Source of the DNA: a virus
Virus record (IMG/VR): IMGVR_UViG_3300042465_003746
Coordinates: 23,414 to 87,413 of that record
DNA: 64,000 nucleotides
Reading direction: 5' to 3' (one strand)
Shown: in pieces, positions 3,538 through 25,476 of the stretch
Layout: every line of letters begins with the position of its first letter
Numbering within the stretch: position 1 is the first letter of the stretch
Program-made: the position numbers and the translations under genes
The notes under the pieces: model-generated
What the model saw: only the letters and a program-made list of their open reading frames with translations
Told to the model about the DNA's origin: nothing
Databases searched by the model: none

Positions 3538-4616
3538 TTAATTTTAGTTTTTTCAAATCCCTGTAAAGCAGATGCCATCCAAATCTCGTCTTGTGTGCCT
3601 TTAAGATATACTATGTAAATCTTAGCCTTAGACTTTCCTTGGAGATTCATTGCTCTCATGGTTTGCTGAATACATAGACTTTCTACGCTTTTCAACTGAT
3701 TAAATACTGCTACTTTTAAATTAGGAATAGTAATGCCCATAGATATCATAGAAATTACAGATAATTTATTAATAGTTCCATTCTTGAAGTCCTCCAAAGA
3801 AGATTTATTAGCATTGCTATGATAACAACCTTCACCAATTTGATTAGCGATTTCTTGTCTACCTGTAAATACTAAACATCTACCCATCTTTGGGTCATCA
3901 ACTATTGCTTTAGTTGCTGCTACTTTACTTCTAGAATTATAAATAATACCTGTTCTCTTAGACATTAAAAATCGTAAGTTTTTATACTTACCCTGAACTA
4001 CATCTCTTTTATATCTACTATCCCAATAAGAATAAGCTTCTAACTCTGTTTGGTTAAATGGAGCAGCTTCTGTGCCTGCTAGAACATATTTGTCTGTATC
4101 ATCCAAAGGAACCCCTACACATATTATCTCATAGTCAGCAATAATTTTATCTTTAATAGCTTGTGCAAAAGTATAAGTATAAAAAGGCACTAAGCTTAGT
4201 ATATTACCTAGATTAAATTCATCTTGCTGTGTTAAAGTTCCCGTTAGTCCTAGAATTCTAGAACCTTTTATTTGACGTTTACGTAATTCTGCTAATACTT
4301 TTAGATTATAACTATGACATTCATCTGCTATAATTAGATTATAAGTGTCTTTGTTCTTCTTTAAACTATTACTCCATACATATTCTACTTCAATATTGTC
4401 TACTAAATTCCAAGTAACTATTTCTCTTTTCCAATCTTCTAGAATAGACAATTGGGGTGCCATTATTAGCACCTTAATTGTCTTATCTACAGTATTCAAT
4501 GCGTCAATTGTTATCTTGCATTTACCGACACGAGGACTTACAAAAAGAATTCCATTAAACCGATTTAGTACTACAGCATCACTTGCTTCTTTTTGTATTT
4601 TCTCTCGTTTCTTCAT
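3528..4616 (-). CDS. Superfamily 2 (DExH) helicase
   Basis: SPRVGKC motif I, IIADECH motif II, LGLTGT motif III, QQTMRAMN motif VI-like. Confidence 0.85.
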   Translation of the reverse strand: MKKREKIQKEASDAVVLNRFNGILFVSPRVGKCKITIDALNTVDKTIKVLIMAPQLSILEDWKREIVTWNLVDNIEVEYVWSNSLKKNKDTYNLIIADECHSYNLKVLAELRKRQIKGSRILGLTGTLTQQDEFNLGNILSLVPFYTYTFAQAIKDKIIADYEIICVGVPLDDTDKYVLAGTEAAPFNQTELEAYSYWDSRYKRDVVQGKYKNLRFLMSKRTGIIYNSRSKVAATKAIVDDPKMGRCLVFTGRQEIANQIGEGCYHSNANKSSLEDFKNGTINKLSVISMISMGITIPNLKVAVFNQLKSVESLCIQQTMRAMNLQGKSKAKIYIVYLKGTQDEIWMASALQGFEKTKIKWI

Positions 4617-5041
4617 AGTGTTATTAATTTATAATCTGTTTTTTGCTTCCAACCTTGTAGATGTATATCAGAAGGAACCCATTTTAATAAAGGCATCGGA
4701 TGTCTATTATTCTCTAGCCATTCTTCATAGTTTTCCTTAATAACTTTTACTACTTCTGAGTCACTAGTAATTTTAAACAGGTGCAATATTGCACCATGAG
4801 ATCTAGATATTACTCTACCAATCTCTGCATAAGATAATCCTTTATCAAATAATGCATGAGCAGTTACTTTTCTCATTTCTACTAAATAACTATTTTGATA
4901 TCTAGCATTTAATGCAAAATAATTCCTTAAAGGCGTTAAACTTTCTAGTAATTGAATCTCTTTTTTTAATCTTTCAATTCTATCTTCAAAAGATTCTTCT
5001 TTAAACATTTTCTTACTTCCTACTTTCATTAGTGTTGCCAT
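4613..5041 (-). CDS. HTH DNA-binding protein
   Basis: GLSYAEIGRVISRSHGAILH helix-turn-helix. Confidence 0.6.
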   Translation of the reverse strand: MATLMKVGSKKMFKEESFEDRIERLKKEIQLLESLTPLRNYFALNARYQNSYLVEMRKVTAHALFDKGLSYAEIGRVISRSHGAILHLFKITSDSEVVKVIKENYEEWLENNRHPMPLLKWVPSDIHLQGWKQKTDYKLITL

Positions 5042-7038
5042 TTATGAGTTATCATTGGTTCAGCTTTAAGTTTTACTACTTTGCAAAACACATCACCTGC
5101 TCTTTCCATACAATCTTGTAATACTTCCGCCATACCTTTAGCCATTTCTTCTGGACATTCTACTAACCACTCATCGTGAACTACATTAGGTAGTTTTACT
5201 TTGAATATTAGATCATTATCCGCTAGATACTTAAAGAAATATATACCAGCAAGTTTAGTTATATCAGCACTACTACCTTGAACAGGATAATTTAGAGACA
5301 TTCTTTCAATATCTCCACGCTTCATAAAATACTCTCGAACTTTTGGCTTAAAATGGGTCTTAAAGATACTAGAATCCATTGACTTTTCCAACTTATAACT
5401 GTCCCAAAATCCCTCAGTTTCATAAATTTCTTTATGAAGTTTTTGAAATTCTTCAAAGAAAGGAATAAAGCATTTTCTTCCACTAATATTATTAAATTGG
5501 ATATATCCTAATTCTATTGCTCTTTTCTTTTCTACCTTAAAATAGTTAGCTAATCCAGGAAATGCTTTAAAATAAGCCTTATAGACTGCTTCACCCTCTT
5601 CCATAGATATATTTAGATTCTGAGCAATAGTTATACCTGTACCGCCATAATTTATAGCAAAACCTGCACCTTTAGCAATCTGTCTTTTACTTTTATGATT
5701 ATTCTTTATCTCATCTAGACTTAAATCTCCTAACTCAGGAAATATCTTCGATGCGATAAACGAGTGCATATCCCCAAGACCTTTAGAATAAAATTCAAGT
5801 AAATCTTTGTCCAAAGATTTATTGGCCAATACTATCTGTTCTTGCCCACTGTAATCGCTTACTATTAGCACGTTGCCCTTCTCCGCTTGGAAGCAACTTC
5901 TAGTTCTACTATCAGCAGGTATATTTTGCATATTAGGCATTTGAGGCATACCCTTTTTAGGAGCTCCTTTCTGACCGCTAGACAGCCTGCCTGTGTTCAT
6001 AATTTGTGTATAGTTACTATGAATTCTTCCTGTTACAGAGCTTATATATTTAAACCAATTCTCACCATAAGTACTAACTACTTTTTGATGCTCAGTATAT
6101 TCTATATAAGTAGAAATAATAGTATGTTTCTTCTTTTGTGGGCCTAAGACTTTCTTGTCTACAGAATCTTTCATCATTCCCGTTAGTTTATCCTTAGTCA
6201 GCGTATCAACGCCTAAAGACTGCATAAAAGGAATAACTTGCTTAGAAGAAGCCCAATTAATTTTACAAGTAATACCCTCGTCAAATAAAGACAATTGATT
6301 ATTTACAAACTTTGGATAAGTATCTGCATTATCTAATATAAATTGATCTAATTGTTTTTTAACAACATCTAAATCTTTTAAATCTTCTGTGCACTTACTT
6401 TGCCAATCTTGACTATTCATAAACATACCACAATACTCTATATATGCTAACACACATACAAATTGATTATCTAAAGAAGCAGTTTTGTGTAATTGCTTTT
6501 CTTGAAGAGCAACTTCTTGTTTCCTTTTAACCTGATGAAGATATTTAACATCATCAGCAGCATATTTAATAACTCTTGTAGTCAATCCCTCTCTATGGAT
6601 ATTTCCTCTAATAGTTTTATCTAACTCTATTTTACAATATCTGTAAACTACAGCGTCTAACGATCTTCTAATAGTATCAATACCAGTAGTGAGAATTCTT
6701 TCTACTAAAAAAGTATCAAATATTTTCATAGGTACAATTTGATAATAATATAGGAACCTAAGATCAAATTTAGCATTGTGCATTATTAACACTTTGCTCT
6801 CTAATAATTCTTTATACAACTTAGGATTTACAGTAAGACAATCTATTACATATTGTTTACTTTCATCACCTAATTGCATACTTAGTAAATCCTTTGTGAA
6901 AGGATCCATTCCTCTAGTTTCTGTATCAAATCCTATAACATCTAAATCCTTTAAGTATTCTATTGACTCCTCTACAGTAGCCATAGAATAGCCAGAAGGA
7001 ATAAATAATTCCTTCTGACCAGTAACTAAATAAATCAT
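5029..7038 (-). CDS. polA: Family A DNA polymerase with 3'-5' exonuclease
   Basis: Exo motifs DTET, HNAKFD, YAADD; polymerase motifs TGRLSS, PNMQNIP, DYSGQE, RQIAKGAGFAINYG, NYPVQG, VHDE. Confidence 0.96.
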   Translation of the reverse strand: MIYLVTGQKELFIPSGYSMATVEESIEYLKDLDVIGFDTETRGMDPFTKDLLSMQLGDESKQYVIDCLTVNPKLYKELLESKVLIMHNAKFDLRFLYYYQIVPMKIFDTFLVERILTTGIDTIRRSLDAVVYRYCKIELDKTIRGNIHREGLTTRVIKYAADDVKYLHQVKRKQEVALQEKQLHKTASLDNQFVCVLAYIEYCGMFMNSQDWQSKCTEDLKDLDVVKKQLDQFILDNADTYPKFVNNQLSLFDEGITCKINWASSKQVIPFMQSLGVDTLTKDKLTGMMKDSVDKKVLGPQKKKHTIISTYIEYTEHQKVVSTYGENWFKYISSVTGRIHSNYTQIMNTGRLSSGQKGAPKKGMPQMPNMQNIPADSRTRSCFQAEKGNVLIVSDYSGQEQIVLANKSLDKDLLEFYSKGLGDMHSFIASKIFPELGDLSLDEIKNNHKSKRQIAKGAGFAINYGGTGITIAQNLNISMEEGEAVYKAYFKAFPGLANYFKVEKKRAIELGYIQFNNISGRKCFIPFFEEFQKLHKEIYETEGFWDSYKLEKSMDSSIFKTHFKPKVREYFMKRGDIERMSLNYPVQGSSADITKLAGIYFFKYLADNDLIFKVKLPNVVHDEWLVECPEEMAKGMAEVLQDCMERAGDVFCKVVKLKAEPMITHKWQH

Positions 7039-13477: not shown

Positions 13478-13505
13478 GATATTTAAATTTAAGGTTTAAT
13501 ATTAT

Positions 13506-13772
13506 TTATTGATATTCTAGTGTATAAGCTATAGCCTTCATAGCAAGCTTAGAGTTAAGAGTTCTAGGAACTCTTTTAATTAATTCTTTAAAGTCTTCAG
13601 TTAAGTTAACTACTGAGTATTTAGACTTATCAGGTTGAGCATCGTAATGCTGTTGATAAGTATAGTCAAGGATAATATCCTCGTTATTTTTAGGTCCATC
13701 AGTAAATATTACTAATGTCATTCCGTCTTCACATTTTACTGTTACTCGGTATAGTGCAATATCTTCCATCAT
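13506..13772 (-). CDS. Hypothetical protein (88 aa)
   Basis: Probable start MMEDIAL at 13772, preceded by a TATATTTA box at 13792-13799. Confidence 0.65.
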   Translation of the reverse strand: MMEDIALYRVTVKCEDGMTLVIFTDGPKNNEDIILDYTYQQHYDAQPDKSKYSVVNLTEDFKELIKRVPRTLNSKLAMKAIAYTLEYQ

Positions 13773-13854
13773 CTTTAGTTTTAATAAAGAATAAATATAC
13801 ATAATAAAGAACTCCTGTAATAATTTACAAGAGTTCTTTTCAGATCTATAAGAT

Positions 13855-14073
13855 CTATCGTGCAATATTGTGATTATAACAATTGTTTCTGTTGAACATT
13901 TTGTTAAACTTAATTGTACGATGTTGTTTTTTACCATGTTTCTTATAATTGAAACCTTTCTTTATCTTAAAGCTATGAGTCTTTGTAGAGCCTTTTTTAC
14001 TTGGCCATCCATCATTTCCTACTACAGTGTAGCTCATAACAAGCATTACTATAACTGCTATTACTCTTTTCAT
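13855..14073 (-). CDS. Small basic protein with signal peptide/TM
   Basis: MKRVIAVIVMLVMSYTVVG then a Lys-rich tail. Confidence 0.65.
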   Translation of the reverse strand: MKRVIAVIVMLVMSYTVVGNDGWPSKKGSTKTHSFKIKKGFNYKKHGKKQHRTIKFNKMFNRNNCYNHNIAR

Positions 14074-14100
14074 ATATTTGTTTTTAAGTTTTAAGTAAAT

Positions 14101-14131
14101 AACCCCACATAAAGCTATAATATGTGGGGTT
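14101..14131. terminator. Intergenic stem-loop (terminator or processing site)
   Basis: AACCCCACATA...TATGTGGGGTT inverted repeat. Confidence 0.55.
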
Positions 14132-14204
14132 TATGATCTATAAGATCGACTATTAGACTACGAAAGGTATAAGATTATCCTTGTGCCTATTTGTATGCGT
14201 AAGC

Positions 14205-14360
14205 TTAATCTTCCTTGGCAATAATAATAGTGCCAATGGCTCCTAAAGAACCTACTAATATCATTGTGCTACCGTGAGTATTACCTCCCAGTGTTAATAT
14301 AGCTCCTATTAATAAGACTATTGTACACAATACTCCTATTAAAAACAATTTATTTGTCAT
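14205..14360 (-). CDS. Small two-TM membrane protein (51 aa)
   Basis: MTNKLFLIGVLCTIVLLIGAILTLGG...ILVGSLGAIGTIIIAKED; ATGA-coupled. Confidence 0.65.
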   Translation of the reverse strand: MTNKLFLIGVLCTIVLLIGAILTLGGNTHGSTMILVGSLGAIGTIIIAKED

Positions 14361-14443
14361 AATTTTTCTATTAAGATGATGGTTAATATTATAATTGCTA
14401 TTGTGTATAAGTAGAACATACCTATACTTGCTGAACGTTTCAT
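14357..14443 (-). CDS. Single-TM microprotein (28 aa)
   Basis: MKRSASIGMFYLYTIAIIILTIILIEKL; leader nearly identical to that of 14678..14863. Confidence 0.55.
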   Translation of the reverse strand: MKRSASIGMFYLYTIAIIILTIILIEKL

Positions 14444-14677
14444 AAGTATATTTTTAAGTTTAAAAATACATAAGCAAACTATTAAAAGCTTATGTGTGCA
14501 TCCTACTGTATTGGTAGTCTTTCCTCTCTTATTACTAAGTTTAAGGCGATGCTTTTCTACTAAGATGATTAGTCTTTTTTAGCTAATAGATAGCGGCAAT
14601 ACACAGAATGTTAAGTGTATGCATTTAGTCAGTTATTATAGAGAATCACTCATACTGACAGAAGTATTTTTAATAGA

Positions 14678-14863
14678 TTACTCTCCTGTATTACTTTCCA
14701 TTGCAGCTACATCAGCATCAATAGACATTTGTAGTTCTTCATTTAAACTACAAAGAGCAACTATTGCTCCTTGGTAAAAGGGATCATAAGGATCAGCTTT
14801 CTGATACATAGATATTCTTGCATCAATCATAGCGACAAGATCTATTTTATGAGTATTCTCCAT
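14678..14863 (-). CDS. Hypothetical protein
   Basis: 61 aa ORF with A-rich leader. Confidence 0.65.
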   Translation of the reverse strand: MENTHKIDLVAMIDARISMYQKADPYDPFYQGAIVALCSLNEELQMSIDADVAAMESNTGE

Positions 14864-14934
14864 AAGTATAGTTTTAAGTTAATTATTAATCCCTCTGCCT
14901 TGTAGCTCTAATTATTTTGTTATATATTTGTATT

Positions 14935-15402
14935 ATGAAACAATTCAGAAATACACAATACTATGTTACTGATAAACAAGAAGTTTATAATGTAACAACA
15001 AAAAGATATGTAAAGCCTTATCTTGCATCTAATGGAAAGAATCCTAACAAGAAATACTTAGCGGTTGGTTTGTATATTGATGGTAAAAGAAAGAATATTC
15101 TTTACCATAGATTAATTGCCGAAGTACATATGCCCAATACTCTTAATTTACCACAGATAAATCACATTGATGGAGATATATATAACAATTCTATTTCTAA
15201 TTTAGAATGGTGTAGTGCTTCTATAAATAACATTCATGCTATTAGAACAGGACTAAGACCTACTAAATTAAATATGGAGAAAGCTAATGAGATTAGATCT
15301 TTATTAGCTAGTGGTCATACTATAAATGAAGTATGTAAAATTTACAATGTTGGTAGAACTATTGTCTCTAAAATAAGAGATAACATTTCTTGGAAAATAT
15401 AA
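14935..15402 (+). CDS. HNH homing endonuclease with C-terminal HTH
   Basis: YHRLIAEVHM, QINHIDGDIYNNSISNLEW; antisense to neighbours; ATG 14935 follows a TATATTTG box (14923-14930). Confidence 0.9.
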   Translation: MKQFRNTQYYVTDKQEVYNVTTKRYVKPYLASNGKNPNKKYLAVGLYIDGKRKNILYHRLIAEVHMPNTLNLPQINHIDGDIYNNSISNLEWCSASINNIHAIRTGLRPTKLNMEKANEIRSLLASGHTINEVCKIYNVGRTIVSKIRDNISWKI

Positions 15403-15505
15403 TGCACCCCAGTTGTAATAGCTCTATTGGCTAAATGAAAGCATAAGTTCATATACAATCAATATTACAACTGCTCACCCTTGGGAAGTGAGTTGTGGTG
15501 CATTA
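15400..15505 (-). ncRNA. Twister-like structured RNA (3' GAGGGA strand displaced to 14890-14898)
   Basis: TAA-TGCA-CC, P4 CTCAC/GTGAG with loop TTCCCAAGG, P5 CAGTTGTAATA/TATTACAACTG, TGCA. Confidence 0.5.
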
Positions 15506-15543
15506 AGTGAATAGTTTGTATACTTATTCAGGTATATTAAATT

Positions 15544-15573
15544 AAGCCATACCCTATTTAAAGGGTATGACTT
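15544..15573. terminator. Intergenic stem-loop
   Basis: AAGCCATACCCT...AGGGTATGACTT inverted repeat. Confidence 0.5.
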
Positions 15574-15760
15574 ATCAATGCTTTAAGCATTCTCGTTACG
15601 TAACCATTCAAGGCTAGTAACTACTCCATTAACTATACACATAACTGAAAATCAATTAGTTAAGTAATAAAATAAGTACGTCACGTGTACTAACGTTGCT
15701 ATATTCACCGAGAGAGTGAAGGTATATTCACCGAAGGACTGCACCGCAAAGCGGTGACCC

Positions 15761-16039
15761 TTAAAGGATCACTGCTTTGAAGTAGTTGCTGTCAGGCTTA
15801 GCCTCGAATGCTACTCTGTCTGAGTAGTCATCACCCATTGGCAATGCAGTTTGTACTGCTTCCAATGTGTGTTCACTCTTCATGAACAGAGATGCATAAG
15901 AACTGCCACAAGCTAAGCCGTTAAGCTCTTTGTCTTTGCGGAAGACAACTAGCACACGCGGTTCGAACTCGCCAGTCATCTTATCGTCAGCCCAAACTGG
16001 GCACTCAACTGTCTTAATTTGGTGGATTGAAATTTTCAT
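15761..16039 (-). CDS. Hypothetical protein, first gene of the leftward arm
   Basis: 92 aa ORF, locally higher GC, followed by a CACCGC-AAA-GCGGTG hairpin. Confidence 0.7.
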   Translation of the reverse strand: MKISIHQIKTVECPVWADDKMTGEFEPRVLVVFRKDKELNGLACGSSYASLFMKSEHTLEAVQTALPMGDDYSDRVAFEAKPDSNYFKAVIL

Positions 16040-16659
16040 AGTCTAAAGTTTAAAGGCGGGATGTGTTCCCCGTCCAAGATTTAGTGGGGGTTGTTGACTG
16101 TGGTGCTAACCACAAGATCGAATTTCTAATAAAAAATAATATAATAAAAAATAAAAAATAATACCATATATTACTTTGCACTAGATTTACTTTGTTTTAC
16201 TTAAAAACTATATTAGTAAGCATCATAAACTAGGAACATAAATAAAGGGATATAAAGGGGGGGTATAATTTAATACTCCATAGGGTATGAAGTTTGTTAA
16301 GAGAATAAAAAATAAAAATATAATTATAATTATAAATAAGGATGTACAATGCACATATCTAGTAGAATAGATATATGCATCTACGTTGTAGATTTATCTA
16401 TACTATACTTTAAAAAGATAATTACTTTCTTATCAACTAGTTACAACTTTTTACTATAGGTCCTCGGTGGCTACTAATATACCTACAGCTATAGTAGTGG
16501 CATACCTCTAGGGGTATGTTCATACTATACCTAGAGCTATAGTAAGCCTCATAACTATAATATTTTACAATGTCAAGCATTTATTAATATTTATTTTACA
16601 TCTACTATTTGTGAATAATATTATGTAATTTAGCGGCAACCAAACAATTCCCTCTCAAT
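16040..16659. other. Divergent control region (candidate origin / genome-end region)
   Basis: Strand switch; GC-rich hairpins, very AT-rich tract, IHF-consensus site, 19 bp direct repeats and a palindrome. Confidence 0.55.
16478..16544. repeat. 19 bp direct repeats TATACCTA(C/G)AGCTATAGTA flanking palindrome CATACC-TCTAGG-GGTATG
   Basis: Copies at 16478-16496 and 16526-16544, one mismatch. Confidence 0.85.
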
Positions 16660-17442
16660 ATGAAGACCGTAAGAAAAAGAATGTTTTACGATATTGAAGT
16701 ATCCTATTTTATCATCAGTGCATGGCGACTAGGATATAACCTTTCAATACAACCTCACCAAATTATTAAATACCCTGAAGTAATATGTATCTCCTGGAAG
16801 TGGGAAGGAGAAGATGAAGTCCATAATTTAAGATGGGACGAGAACCAAAGTGATAAGACTCTCATAGAAGATTTTATAAAGGAACTAAACAAAGCAAATC
16901 AAATAGTAGCACACAACGGAGATAGATTCGATTTAAAATGGTTAAGAACTAGGGCTATTCTACATGGCCTATATATGGCTCCTAGATATGAAACTATAGA
17001 TACCCTTAAAATAGCTAAGTCACAATTTAACTTTGCCTCTAATAAACTTGACGAGTTAGGTAAATTCTTAGGACTAGGACAAAAGATTCATACAGATTAT
17101 TCTCTATGGGATAAAATATGTCAAGAGAAGTCAGAAGAAGCCCTAAACGATATGGTTACTTACTGCGATCAAGATGTTAAATTACTTGAAAAGATATATG
17201 AGAAACTAAGACCTTACGCTAAAACACAATTCAACTACGGTAAACTTTACGGTGATGACAATTGGGCATGTCCAGAATGCGGTTCCCTAAAAGTACGAGT
17301 TAACAAGTCATATACTACTCCTATGGGAGTAAGAAGATATTATCTACGATGTCTAACTAAATCATGCAGCACTAACTTCCCTGTAAGCAACAGAACCTAT
17401 CTTAAAATGATGGAGTGGAAGATTAAATCAGATAACATCTAA
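16660..17442 (+). CDS. DEDD/RNase H-fold 3'-5' exonuclease with C-terminal Zn ribbon
   Basis: FYDIE, AHNGDRFD, YCDQDV; CPECGS...CLTKSC. Confidence 0.85.
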   Translation: MKTVRKRMFYDIEVSYFIISAWRLGYNLSIQPHQIIKYPEVICISWKWEGEDEVHNLRWDENQSDKTLIEDFIKELNKANQIVAHNGDRFDLKWLRTRAILHGLYMAPRYETIDTLKIAKSQFNFASNKLDELGKFLGLGQKIHTDYSLWDKICQEKSEEALNDMVTYCDQDVKLLEKIYEKLRPYAKTQFNYGKLYGDDNWACPECGSLKVRVNKSYTTPMGVRRYYLRCLTKSCSTNFPVSNRTYLKMMEWKIKSDNI

Positions 17443-23046: not shown

Positions 23047-25476
23047 ATGAGTTCTCCAGTTAAAATGCAAGGATATATTAGTTTCCCTAGACAGAAACTA
23101 CCTGATTCTAAAAAAGATGACAATTGGTTTAAAAAGAATATGGACTTTGCAGAGCATTTATTAACCTCTGATGTAAACCTACGTTCTAACTTTAAGAATA
23201 AAAAAGCTAACTATAATCTAAGAGCTAATATAATTAACGTCAAGGATTTTGAAAAATTTATTAATCCTGATAATTTAGACCTAGAATCCCTTCCTGCATC
23301 TTTTCAGCATATAGGAATAGAGAATTCTAAGATTAATTTATTACTTGGAGAATATTCTAAAAGAAAAAAAGAATTTAAAGCATATATCTCAGCTAACGAT
23401 AAAGACGGTATCTCTAGAAAAGAAGAACAATTAATGGAGCAAATTACTTCAGAAATAACTTCTATGATTAAGAGTACTTCTATTTCTGAAGAAGAAATTA
23501 AGAAACGATTAGAGCAATTAAATAAGTATCAAACTTATGATTTCCAAGATATCGCAGAAATAACTGCTAATAAAATCCTTAAGAAAGAATACAAAGAAGG
23601 AGACTTCGATTTTACTTTCCTACGTACTTTTGAAGACCTACTAGTTGGGGGCGAGGAAATAATGTATTGTGGAGTACTTGGGGGTAACCCAGTAATGAGA
23701 CGAGTAAATCCAATGAATCTATATACAATGGGGGGTAACTCTATGTATATTGAAGATGCAGATATTATTGTTGAATACGGATATAAATCAGTAGGGCAGA
23801 TAATAGATGATTATTGGGAAGAACTTTCTGAAGACGATGTAGATTTCTTAGAAAGAGGTAAGTCTGATGCTTCTGCAGGAGGCGGTGGTATAGGATTAAA
23901 TAGAGATGTATCTGTTTATGATTACTACGGAGAACAAGGAGCCTTAAGTATTTTCCATCCTAATGAGATGGGGACTAGAACTTTCTCAGGAGCTTTTGAT
24001 ACTTATGGAAACGTAAGAGTACTTAAAGTATGTTGGAGATCAAGAAGAAAGATTGGTGAATTAACTTTCTTTGATGATGAAGGACAAGAACAAAAAGATT
24101 GGGTTCCTGAAGATTACAAAGTTAATAAAGACTTAGGTGAAACAGTAAAATGGATATGGGTAAATGAGTGGATGGAAGGTACTAAAATTGCTGACCACGT
24201 TTACACACTAATGCGTCCTGTACCTTATGCTAGTAAATCTATAGTTAATAAATCCAAAGGAACTCCTCCTTACGTAGGAAGTGTGAATTCAACAAATGAT
24301 TACAAAGTACAATCATTGATGGATATTATGAAGCCAATGAGTTACTCTTATGATATTGCTTATTACAAAAGAGAATTAGCTATTGCTACTTATAAAGGTT
24401 CTTTCACTGCACTTAATTCTTCACTGGTGCCTTCAGGATGGGACCCAAAAGAGTGGATGCGATATGTTACTATAAACAAATTTGCTTGGCTAGACCCAAC
24501 TAATGAAATACTTAAAGGGCCTTCTCAAGGTAAATCAGCAGGAGCTTTCAACACACTTACAGCTCAACAAATACAAGTAGGAGATCCAAATGAAATAGGT
24601 ATGTATACTAATCTGATGTTGGACATAGAAAATACTCTAGGTAAATTAGCAGGTGTAACAGGAGCCAGAGAAGGACAAATAGAAAATAGAGAAGCAGTAG
24701 GAAATGTAGAGAGAGAAGTTGCACAGACTAATCATATCACTGAGAAGTGGTTTGCTATAGATGCTAACTTCCGTAAAAGAGTTCTTACTAAGTTCCTAGA
24801 ATGTTGTAAATACTCTTATAAGAAAAATCCTAAGAAAGGACAGTTCTTGTTAGATGATATGGGGCAAGTAATGATTAATAATTTTGATGAATTTGTTGCA
24901 ACTGAATATGACTTACATGTATCTAATGCTACAGCAGATACGCAGTTATACAATGACCTAAGATCTTTAGCACAAGCAGCTATCCAAAATGGCCAAGCTA
25001 CTATTGCAGACTTAGCAGCAATATCACAATCAGAATCTGTACAAGAAGTTGCTAGAAGACTTGATGATTCAGCTAGAAAAATCAAAGAGCAAAATGATGC
25101 GATGCAAGAAAAACAACTTGCTGCACAACAGGAAAATGCTCAAATGCAAATGAAAGAGAAACAGGATACCCGTGCATTTGAAGCAGGTGAAGCAGAAAAA
25201 GATAGAGATCTTAAACGAGAAGAAATCGCTTCCAAAGAAAGAATGCATGAACTAGGTCAATTATCTACTCACGTTAGAGAGATAGAAGGCAGAGAAGATA
25301 TGGACACAGATAGTAACGGTGTGGGAGATTATTTAGATATCAAACGTACAGAAGTTGACGAAGAATATAAACAAAATCAAATTAGATTAGGAGAAGCTAA
25401 ACTAGCTGAACAAATAAGATCTAATACTGCTAAAGAGAAAATAGCTAAAGAAAAAGGAAATAACCCAACTAAATAA
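23047..25476 (+). CDS. Portal protein
   Basis: 809 aa after TerL; RVLKVCWRSRRKIG, WIWVNEWMEG, C-terminal coiled coil with DTDSNGVGD; crAss-like synteny. Confidence 0.9.
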   Translation: MSSPVKMQGYISFPRQKLPDSKKDDNWFKKNMDFAEHLLTSDVNLRSNFKNKKANYNLRANIINVKDFEKFINPDNLDLESLPASFQHIGIENSKINLLLGEYSKRKKEFKAYISANDKDGISRKEEQLMEQITSEITSMIKSTSISEEEIKKRLEQLNKYQTYDFQDIAEITANKILKKEYKEGDFDFTFLRTFEDLLVGGEEIMYCGVLGGNPVMRRVNPMNLYTMGGNSMYIEDADIIVEYGYKSVGQIIDDYWEELSEDDVDFLERGKSDASAGGGGIGLNRDVSVYDYYGEQGALSIFHPNEMGTRTFSGAFDTYGNVRVLKVCWRSRRKIGELTFFDDEGQEQKDWVPEDYKVNKDLGETVKWIWVNEWMEGTKIADHVYTLMRPVPYASKSIVNKSKGTPPYVGSVNSTNDYKVQSLMDIMKPMSYSYDIAYYKRELAIATYKGSFTALNSSLVPSGWDPKEWMRYVTINKFAWLDPTNEILKGPSQGKSAGAFNTLTAQQIQVGDPNEIGMYTNLMLDIENTLGKLAGVTGAREGQIENREAVGNVEREVAQTNHITEKWFAIDANFRKRVLTKFLECCKYSYKKNPKKGQFLLDDMGQVMINNFDEFVATEYDLHVSNATADTQLYNDLRSLAQAAIQNGQATIADLAAISQSESVQEVARRLDDSARKIKEQNDAMQEKQLAAQQENAQMQMKEKQDTRAFEAGEAEKDRDLKREEIASKERMHELGQLSTHVREIEGREDMDTDSNGVGDYLDIKRTEVDEEYKQNQIRLGEAKLAEQIRSNTAKEKIAKEKGNNPTK

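Follow-up and report, generated by a model that had tools for sequence, protein, structure and literature searches.

Has a homing endonuclease gene invaded the gene of a self-cleaving RNA, and what became of the RNA that it entered? This question is raised by a locus on the minus strand of a 64,000-nt stretch of DNA (hereafter the window), which is part of an 87-kb IMG/VR virus record (IMGVR_UViG_3300042465_003746, positions 23,414 to 87,413). Homing endonuclease genes are known within self-splicing introns, within inteins and between genes. A preliminary description, based upon the sequence alone, had proposed that a twister-like ribozyme is split here by an antisense HNH endonuclease gene and has been either disabled or turned into a long-range switch. 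Our analysis favours, at a probability of roughly 0.7, a conserved lake-phage RNA with type-P1 twister architecture that has been split and likely inactivated by an I-HmuI-like HNH cassette.

The split RNA and its uninterrupted relatives

The minus strand from 15505 to 15410 was found to correspond to the 5' three-quarters of a conserved RNA, the 3' core of which lies beyond the antisense HNH gene. All of the minus-strand features that had been listed for this RNA (UAA, UGCA, CC, P4 with its loop, P5 and a second UGCA) were present at their given positions, as was the GCA-GA-GGGA segment on the far side of the HNH gene, which is GCAGAGGG and is preceded by UAGAGCUACAAG. The parts of the locus are given below, where P denotes a paired stem and T a pseudoknot.

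15503-15505, minus strand: UAA, the N-A-A triplet; in intact family members the scissile bond is predicted to fall between the equivalents of 15505 and 15504
15498-15502, minus strand: P2 5' strand UGCAC (UGCA at 15502-15499), five pairs in the family
15493-15497, minus strand: C and the linker ACAA between P2 and P4 (CC at 15498-15497)
15474-15492, minus strand: P4 hairpin, CUCAC (15492-15488) with GUGAG (15478-15474)
15487-15479, minus strand: loop L4, UUCCCAAGG, with CCC at 15485-15483 as the T1 5' strand
15410-15473, minus strand: P5, CAGUUGUAAU (15473-15464) with AUUACAACUG (15419-15410), inverted repeat I23
15400-15409, minus strand: left junction GGGUGCAUUA, the P2 3' strand and cassette-borne clamp bases
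14935-15402, plus strand: I-HmuI-like HNH endonuclease gene, 155 aa with the initiator Met (ATG at 14935), with a C-terminal helix-turn-helix
14899-14934, minus strand: right end of the cassette, upstream of the HNH start, including UAGAGCUACAAG
14898-14891, minus strand: displaced 3' core GCAGAGGG, which holds part of the P2 3' strand, then the conserved G-A and the GGG strand of T1

The window's copy scored 73.3 bits (E ~1e-16) against a covariance model, R1, which was built from other contigs only, and its local RNA fold (-36.1 kcal/mol, z = -4.4) was matched by none of 200 shuffles. Its P5 is a 10-bp stem around a variable interior of 44 nt. P1 is poor, as the preliminary description had remarked, with three of five pairs and these non-contiguous. 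The UGCA at the left junction is followed by UUAUA, so the conserved G after P2 is displaced, and the GGG belonging to T1 (14893-14891) lies ~590 nt downstream of the loop CCC, so that T1 is not formed locally. The UUA within GGGUGCAUUA is indeed supplied by the HNH stop codon, being the reverse complement of 15400-15402. No second copy was found in the window or in the 87-kb record, in which the other match (12.1 bits, E 0.8) was the distal remnant region itself.

Uninterrupted copies were identified by scanning IMG/VR with a 20-mer covering P4 and its loop, which was found in at least 119 stretches; 121 occurrences were counted, including the window's own record and two that are cut by the end of a locus. 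In 112 of these 121 occurrences, CTGAGTGCAGAGGG (with two mismatches or fewer), i.e. a contiguous CUGAGUGCAGAGGG, was present 35-188 nt downstream. The nine without it comprised the window, the two at a locus end (L023 and L097), two with a 1-nt insertion (L007 and L095), three that share one sequence with a 2-nt deletion (L016, L068 and L116) and one in which the 3' core has been replaced (L061).

HNH-free alleles, for which the preliminary description had advised a search, were found with a contiguous UGCAGAGGG. A relative located through the neighbouring 92-aa gene (L003, 70 % identity) carries the syntenic element intact and HNH-free, reading through ...AUAUUACAACUGAGUGCAGAGGGAUUUUUAAUUAACUUAAAA... 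and then into a leader homologous to that of the window. Two further copies, L041 and L064, are 100 % identical to window positions 15506-15410 (97 nt, up to the junction, including the P5 interior), after which they continue with AGTGCAGAGGGATT (AGUGCAGAGGG, AGTGCAGAGGG) and the window continues with GGGTGCATTATATTTT. The L041/L064 copy scored 99.1 bits against the same covariance model that gave the window's copy its 73.3 bits.

Window 15506-15410 corresponds to L041:343-439 and to L064, and the same pattern was observed among L007, L051, L059 and L081 and among L039, L075 and L086. Entire elements, P5 interior included, are found again without change between unrelated flanks; apart from such cases, P5 interiors are not related to one another. 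Because whole copies recur in this way, the element behaves like a module that can be exchanged, its limits being UAAUGCACC and GAGGG. The minimal copy (L118) spans ~62 nt and holds core elements only, namely a perfect 5-bp P1, AAA, P2, P4/L4, a 3-bp P5, G-A-GGG and the P1 3' strand; a terminator-like hairpin comes next.

Downstream of GAGGG, an open reading frame (ORF) of at least 40 aa starts within 60 nt in 39 of 110 distinct contexts, with a cluster at 30-46 nt, and a terminator-like hairpin often stands upstream of copies (15574-15543 in the window). A recurrent hairpin, GGTCCATATRCCTTAAGGACY, was also seen directly upstream of the element in L047, L059, L072, L075, L096, L108, L007 and L065. 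Tandem copies occur at L028:2083-2196(-), at L020:9192-9547(+), in L010 near 4753 and in the L012 contig at 2038-2386, where the next UAAUGCACC begins a few bases after GAGGG; cleavage at each tandem copy would release unit-length RNAs.

The HNH cassette and its insertion site

The gene that lies antisense to the RNA is a real ORF, as had been proposed. It matched Pfam HNH_3 (5.3e-7; 29.6 bits, cut-off 24.8) and HTH_7 (1.7e-9), as well as HNH families in PHROG (PHROG 59 at 6.5e-36), and its best solved relative was the homing endonuclease I-HmuI (PDB 1U3E, E 7.3e-6, residues 7-121). All eight complete HNH ORFs are open, with a ratio of nonsynonymous to synonymous substitution rates (dN/dS) of 0.07-0.33 in 28 of 28 pairs, which indicates that the ORF is under purifying selection.

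Relatives of the HNH protein with 83-93 % identity were found in two IMG/VR contigs (L126 and L127) and in seven metagenome contigs (L136-L142), among which L136 repeats L127 and L142 shows the right side only. The cassette is present at the same site, with the same junctions, in the window and in eight other flank contexts, giving nine right-junction contexts and eight in which the left junction is visible. In all nine the right junction reads ...AATA(A/G)TTAGAGCTACAAGGCAGAG(G/A)G, and the flanks diverge completely straight after it. The left junction consists of the P5 3' strand, then (A/G)GGTGCATTA in five of the eight, then the end of the ORF; the others read GGTGTATTA or GGGTGTATTA (two) and GTGGATTA (one), and the left-junction DNA is CAACTG(A/G)GGTG(C/T)ATTA or a near variant. 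A scan of IMG/VR with an 18-mer of the right junction for more cassettes returned only two contigs, both known before. P4, the P5 interiors and the outer flanks differ among the HNH-bearing contexts, in which the host copies were as follows.

Window: intact 5' half, P4 CUCAC
L126: intact 5' half, P4 CCUGA, P2 UGUA
L137, L138 and L140: large insert in L4
L127/L136 and L139: 5' half without the L4 loop
L141: P4-P5 deleted

The sequence preceding the displaced 3' core had been described as a degenerate repeat of the P5 3' strand. UAGAGCUACAAG is certainly present; however, it is not a local duplication, as it forms part of the cassette in all nine contexts. The intact copies L019, L046 and L041 read GAGCTATTACAACTGAGTGCAGAGGG where the cassette has UAGAGCUACAAG, and the latter resembles a degraded 3' half from an ancestral host copy that was of the GAGCUAUUACAACUG type, a type that is still intact in these three.

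Taken together, the HNH-free alleles with a contiguous UGCAGAGGG and the cassette at one site in eight other contexts support the proposal that a homing-type HNH gene has invaded a twister-like RNA. Three hallmarks of homing are in place: presence or absence at one precise site, disruption of the site when occupied, and use of the same site in non-orthologous copies. The HNH protein would be expected to cut or nick the intact DNA site, the putative target being one that carries ACAACTGAGTGCAGAGGG. In two HNH-bearing contigs, neighbouring intact copies have a variant 3' core (UACA in L012) or a different P5 3' strand (L135), which hints at target immunity from two instances.

I-HmuI of Bacillus phage SPO1 sits in a self-splicing group I intron of a protein gene, and the product of this host gene is restored. 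The window's protein shares with I-HmuI an HNH_3 catalytic domain followed by a DNA-binding helix-turn-helix and, with phage HNH homing endonucleases more widely, presence or absence at a precise site in highly conserved sequence, a disrupted occupied site (which would give self-immunity) and an ORF under purifying selection. Unlike I-HmuI, it has no intron core around it, its gene is antisense, and its host, a small ribozyme-like RNA, is left split. Endonuclease ORFs of introns lie on the sense strand in a peripheral loop that the fold tolerates, and the ribozyme makes their insertion harmless. The two arrangements have in common a homing endonuclease gene inside the gene of a catalytic RNA (here a predicted one), whereas in the window the ORF is antisense, lies between a P2 strand and the strand carrying the active-site G and T1, and belongs to a copy that is predicted to be caught in an inactive helix when it folds.

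A group I or group II intron was rejected, as no intron core was found by Rfam and the ORF is antisense to the host RNA. An HNH-associated RNA of the IscB/HEARO type was likewise rejected, there being no Rfam match and the 155-aa protein being small and I-HmuI-like.

Both junctions are spanned without differences by contigs of other lake runs (X2 record 7 over 14891-15477; X3 record 9 over 14600-15009). The split arrangement is therefore not an assembly artefact, and an assembly chimera was rejected. When the contigs of X2-X5 were compared with the window, none bridged an HNH-free form of the same phage. Dozens of contigs from four lake runs match 15465-15506 only and diverge on either side, which fits a conserved core common to many phages.

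A second type of insertion was observed in the RNA family, in which a stretch of ~140-160 nt lies inside loop L4. Its first bases, GTRGATATRAAGACTTC, adjoin the P4 5' strand, and its last are in every case (T)TAATCAG, just before (C/T)TCCCAAGG; this insert may represent an additional domain of the RNA or a different mobile element. The copies that carry it are listed here.

L127 (minus strand), ~1283-1450: copy with L4 insert
L137, L138 and L140: host copies with L4 insert
L024, 8429-8579: copy with L4 insert
L013, 2411-2589: copy with L4 insert
L009, 7435-7641: copy with L4 insert

Twister likeness of the RNA family

The twister ribozyme of type P1, with an optional P5, is said to have been described by Roth et al. 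in 2014. The element found here runs, in order, through P1, an N-A-A triplet, a 5-bp P2, a C-A linker, P4 with loop UUCCCAAGG, P5, an A, the P2 3' strand, G-A, a GGG whose T1 partner is the CCC of the loop, and the P1 3' strand. Twister (RF03160) shares this order of P1, N-A site, P2, P4 loop with CCC-AAG, optional P5 and G-A-GGG; it shares T1, between the loop CCC and the 3' GGG and with covariation; and it shares the invariant adenine 3' of the site, the guanine after P2 and the variable N-1. The twister L4 loop ends in GC, whereas that of the element ends in GG. The element also differs from twister in having no P3, in always having P5, and in a core whose sequence hardly varies among more than 100 phage contigs.

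Published accounts give twister three essential stems, optional P0, P3 and P5, and two pseudoknots; at the cleavage site the A is conserved and the N less so, a conserved G stands at the base of P2, and P1 is dispensable (PMC5408937; PMC6154101). N-1 is free to vary in the first of these, and a third names the conserved site A and the G 3' of P2 as general acid and general base (PMC11662667). The features of the element match the descriptions in the former two and the working criteria of the latter. P1 is short and imperfect in many copies here, a stem that the reviews call dispensable. P3 is given for 78 % of annotated twisters and P5 for 1 % (PMC6154101).

Covariation was assessed in three alignments. 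A1 comprised 33 non-redundant short-P5 copies (62 nt or fewer between the cores) taken from the 112 intact occurrences, and R1 was derived from it with P2, P4 and P5 only. A search with R1 at E<=0.1 recovered the window and 117 other matches in 100 sources, many of which represent a second or third copy, adjacent in tandem or close by, whose stems differ. A2 holds 111 copies, and A3 is a mixed set of 99 matches, 91 of them distinct. In A2, 92.5 % of cells were paired, compared to 84.3 % in shuffles and 31.7-45.5 % with slid partners, and 22 of 29 pairs showed compensatory changes; in A3 this rose to 25 of 29 pairs, with slid controls 28-47 % paired. As P1, T1, T2 and the fifth P2 pair are absent from R1, the counts for P1, T1 and T2 are not fitted to the model.

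Within A3, all five pairs of P4 are compensatory (99.6 % paired, with at least eight different stems), as are nine of the ten P5 pairs, three of the five P2 pairs (98 % paired; pair 19-254 is CG in 80 and UA in 9) and all five P1 pairs (79 % paired). The essential twister stems P1, P2 and P4 are thus supported by covariation across the family, and the window keeps P2 and P4. T1 occurs as CCC/GGG, as CAC/GUG (35 rows) and as CCA/UGG (9 rows), its middle pair being CG in 51 and AU in 35 and its third pair CG in 78 and AU in 9. A further scan, which demanded a base other than C in the middle of the loop CCC, gave 119 stretches, 51 of them with a pairing P4; all 26 loop-CAC copies with a recognizable 3' core read GAGUG, so that CAC pairs with GUG. 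The G-U pairs, which can form on one strand only, identify the minus strand as the RNA strand.

The A after the predicted scissile bond is invariant in A3 (91/91 rows; 110/111 in A2), with U, C or A at N-1. The G after P2 is kept in 88/91 rows of A3 and 107/111 of A2, and near-invariance also holds for the G-A that follows P2 and for AAGG in the loop. The linker C is conserved in 90/91 rows and the A that follows in 91/91, the linker itself varying (ATAA, ACAA, ATT, AAT). The P5 interior is hypervariable (35-188 nt) within a nearly invariant frame, and the P5 arm may carry a function of its own.

T2 fared differently from T1. The preliminary description had read the GC/GC pairing usual in twister as CC/GG, a reading that was not supported. 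The CC/GG pairs are 99 % paired with only a C-to-U wobble (CG 58, UG 32), the second C and both G being invariant, and the partner with which the first C does covary is the G just 5' of the 3' UGCA (pair 21-251: CG 57, UA 31). P2 therefore has five pairs, the base meant to start T2 belonging to the fifth of them, which leaves no more than one or two pairs, all invariant, for T2; in the window, the C at 15497 is the only remaining candidate for a T2 contact.

Several observations weigh against the reading that we favour. Three Rfam twister models (RF03160, RF03154 and RF02684) were tested, and none of them scored any copy. No Rfam twister or intron family matched the window, either at E<=10 (13500-17000) or at the gathering score (whole window), and no twister match was obtained for the syntenic intact L003, the short-P5 copy L028 or the 62-nt minimal copy L118 at E<=10, for 11 loci at the gathering score, or with RF03160 alone on five records at E<=10. 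The Rfam matches listed were to microRNA, small nucleolar RNA and long non-coding RNA only, far below gathering scores. T2, one of the two defining pseudoknots, lacks covariation. A2 and A3 were fitted to the P2, P4 and P5 of R1 and their counts lean towards the model, and the search patterns fixed many conserved columns, which makes the invariance partly circular. Homology to the right of the insertion extends over ~8 nt only, so that classical double-strand-break homing with long arms does not readily explain the spread of the cassette to new copies. Finally, the existence of a related class without the L4 loop, described below, suggests that catalysis may not be the only or the original role of the family.

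As no Rfam model scores the copies, the twister assignment rests on architecture, covariation and conserved positions. These point to the twister identity originally proposed, but natural uninterrupted copies score with no Rfam twister model, and the family is best described as twister-like, a variant of the twister kind rather than a confirmed member. The intact form is expected to self-cleave.

An RNA that is structured but not catalytic is a somewhat unlikely alternative. Its likeness to twister would be convergent or vestigial, the HNH insertion would still be a homing event, and the RNA could act as a three-way-junction scaffold or leader that displays the variable P5 'cargo' arm, shields a 5' end or binds a protein. 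The lack of Rfam twister matches and of support for T2 would be expected of such an RNA, and so would a hypervariable P5 interior (35-188 nt) in a nearly invariant frame and the recurrence of whole elements in different flanks. It is also favoured by a paralogous class that keeps P5 and the 3' core UGCAGAGGG and has a plain short hairpin in place of P4/L4. The copies of this class are as follows.

L015 (minus strand), 425-503: copy of the paralogous class
L072 (minus strand), 5474-5701: copy of the paralogous class
L066 (plus strand), 528-641: copy of the paralogous class
L072 (minus strand), 6011-6164: copy of the paralogous class

Some of these copies have an upstream CCUC able to pair with GAGG, and the class probably represents non-catalytic relatives. 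However, T1 covaries exactly as twister needs, the invariant positions are those of the twister active site (the A that follows the scissile bond, the G-A beyond P2 and AAG in the loop), N-1 varies as it does in twister (PMC5408937), and the 62-nt minimal copy holds nothing beyond the twister-like core. These observations argue for the ribozyme reading.

State of the interrupted copy and its setting

The preliminary description had left the window's copy as either disabled or a long-range switch, and had pointed to an alternative 9-bp stem that would sequester the cleavage site. This stem, or clamp, is present in the minimum-free-energy fold of 646 nt of the minus strand. It pairs 15505-15497 with 15400-15408, covering the cleavage-site triplet, by joining the cassette-borne GGUGCAUUA to UAAUGCACC, with pair probabilities of at least 0.99; pairing with the distal GCA had a probability of ~1e-5 in the same fold. 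Forcing the clamp strand to be single-stranded raised the energy by 9.0 kcal/mol, and the 5' UGC then picked the distal GCA (14896-14898). Transcription, moreover, reaches the clamp ~500 nt ahead of the distal core. Because of this gap in probability and energy, and because the clamp is transcribed first, the copy is most likely disabled, and of the two outcomes originally offered it is disablement that is favoured; on this folding model, ribozyme function has most likely been lost.

The sequence of events that we envisage is as follows. Self-cleavage of intact copies probably severs the phage transcript directly 5' of the element, in many cases ~30-45 nt before the next start codon, and would separate the upstream message from a downstream messenger RNA (mRNA) that starts with a compact 5'-OH structure. 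In this phage a cassette of ~510 bp, coding on the opposite strand, has come to separate the UGCA of the P2 3' strand from the conserved G-A-GGG, moving the presumed catalytic G and the T1 partner ~500 nt away. The same insertion has brought in GGUGCAUUA, zipping the cleavage-site strand UAAUGCACC into a 9-bp helix, and the copy has thereby become what is most likely an inactivated ribozyme. As the target site is split, the genome would be immune to its own nuclease.

A broader proposal is a modular RNA-cassette system of lake phages, in which the twister-like cores form the constant ends and the core serves as a landing pad for selfish DNA, and which we regard as improbable. Elements, each a core with its P5 cargo, would be exchanged as units, tandem copies could yield unit-length RNAs, and the core may be a landing pad both for the HNH cassette (in the 3' core) and for the separate insert of ~150 nt (in L4). 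In its boldest version, base pairing between the HNH mRNA and the clamp strand would let the split copy re-form as a two-piece ribozyme, and the processing of the host message would come under the control of the selfish gene.

It is very unlikely that the split copy works as a bipartite ribozyme or switch, its 5' part cleaving once the clamp has opened and a pairing with the distal 3' core has formed over ~500 nt. The cassette brings its own GCAGAGGG, a possible trigger would be the antisense stretch pairing with the HNH mRNA, and such a switch would couple HNH expression to the processing of the downstream host mRNA. It draws support from the choice of the distal GCA once the clamp strand is forced open, from the retention of GCAGAGGG in eight of nine HNH contexts, and from the sole GAGAG context (L127/L136) also having a decayed 5' half. 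However, the folding probability, the cost of 9 kcal/mol and the earlier transcription of the local clamp all count against it, and the distal P2 has only three pairs. In three of eight HNH-bearing host copies the 5' half is decayed or deleted while the cassette is intact, as expected if the ribozyme is lost after insertion, and the retained GCAGAGGG is equally well explained as the remaining half of the target site.

Hardly credible is conservation at the DNA level, with the cores as recombination or protein-binding sites that bracket exchangeable cassettes, HNH among them: nearly invariant cores with unrelated interiors, one element in different flanks and the pile-up of lake contigs on 15465-15506 alone would suit it, but Watson-Crick and G-U pairing has been preserved through compensatory changes, both in five helices and in the pseudoknot, and the HNH gene sits inside the 3' core, not between the cores in place of the P5 interior.

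Turning from the split and likely inactivated copy to its surroundings, the genome is that of a tailed phage, in which PHROGs detected a terminase, portal, major head protein and DNA polymerase. A sequencing-run lookup found the window's DNA to recur in lake or freshwater metagenome DNA; 24 runs were listed, one of which may be where this DNA came from, with no RNA run among them. From position 1 to ~16100 the genes lie on the minus strand, with one ORF, 14935-15402, opposite to them. The features immediately downstream of the element are these.

14864-14890, minus strand: leader of 27 nt from the element to the next start codon, homologous to the leader of the HNH-free relative L003
14678-14863, minus strand: downstream ORF of 61 aa, without a family match

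On the other side of the element, a 360-nt non-coding stretch after the 92-aa gene holds a direct repeat at 15700-15741 (TATATTCACCGA twice on the plus strand, GGTGAATATA on the minus strand), which is kept in L003 at ~4300-4335; the terminator-like hairpin at 15574-15543 comes after this repeat. L003 has an extra ORF of 69 aa (4525-4734) between the terminator region and the element, which is absent from the window. A tRNA scan of the window found none; an element-bearing contig carries a transfer-messenger RNA gene (L051:885-1274(-), 59.9 bits), and tRNA genes are present in several others. Among GenBank phages, blastn of window 13900-16700 matched only a 109-nt stretch of the HNH gene, in three records, and blastn of an intact element (the L039 copy) gave no match. 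An exact 24-mer scan of GTDB genomes returned four contigs of metagenome-assembled genomes only, which were uninformative on the host.

In a 2019 review in Nucleic Acids Research, bacterial twisters are placed near phage genes and their role is said to be not established. Our literature search, which did not cover supplementary material, found no paper on an endonuclease gene within the core of a small self-cleaving ribozyme. Nor did it find one on phage twister variants, the supplementary lists of candidate twisters in PMC11662667 being outside its coverage, and the cost of conserving a ribozyme core that serves as a homing site was not discussed in the literature found.

In summary, our study describes a large twister-like family in more than 100 uncultured phage contigs that has been missed by the Rfam models. 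Its natural variants cover P1, P2, P4, P5 and T1, which makes the family ready for cleavage assays, and the natural allele pair of L041 and the window, identical up to the junction, offers a comparison that would show the ribozyme's use to the phage. The locus further suggests that an invariant ribozyme core can act as a multi-copy homing site, which would be a cost of conserving an RNA in sequence.

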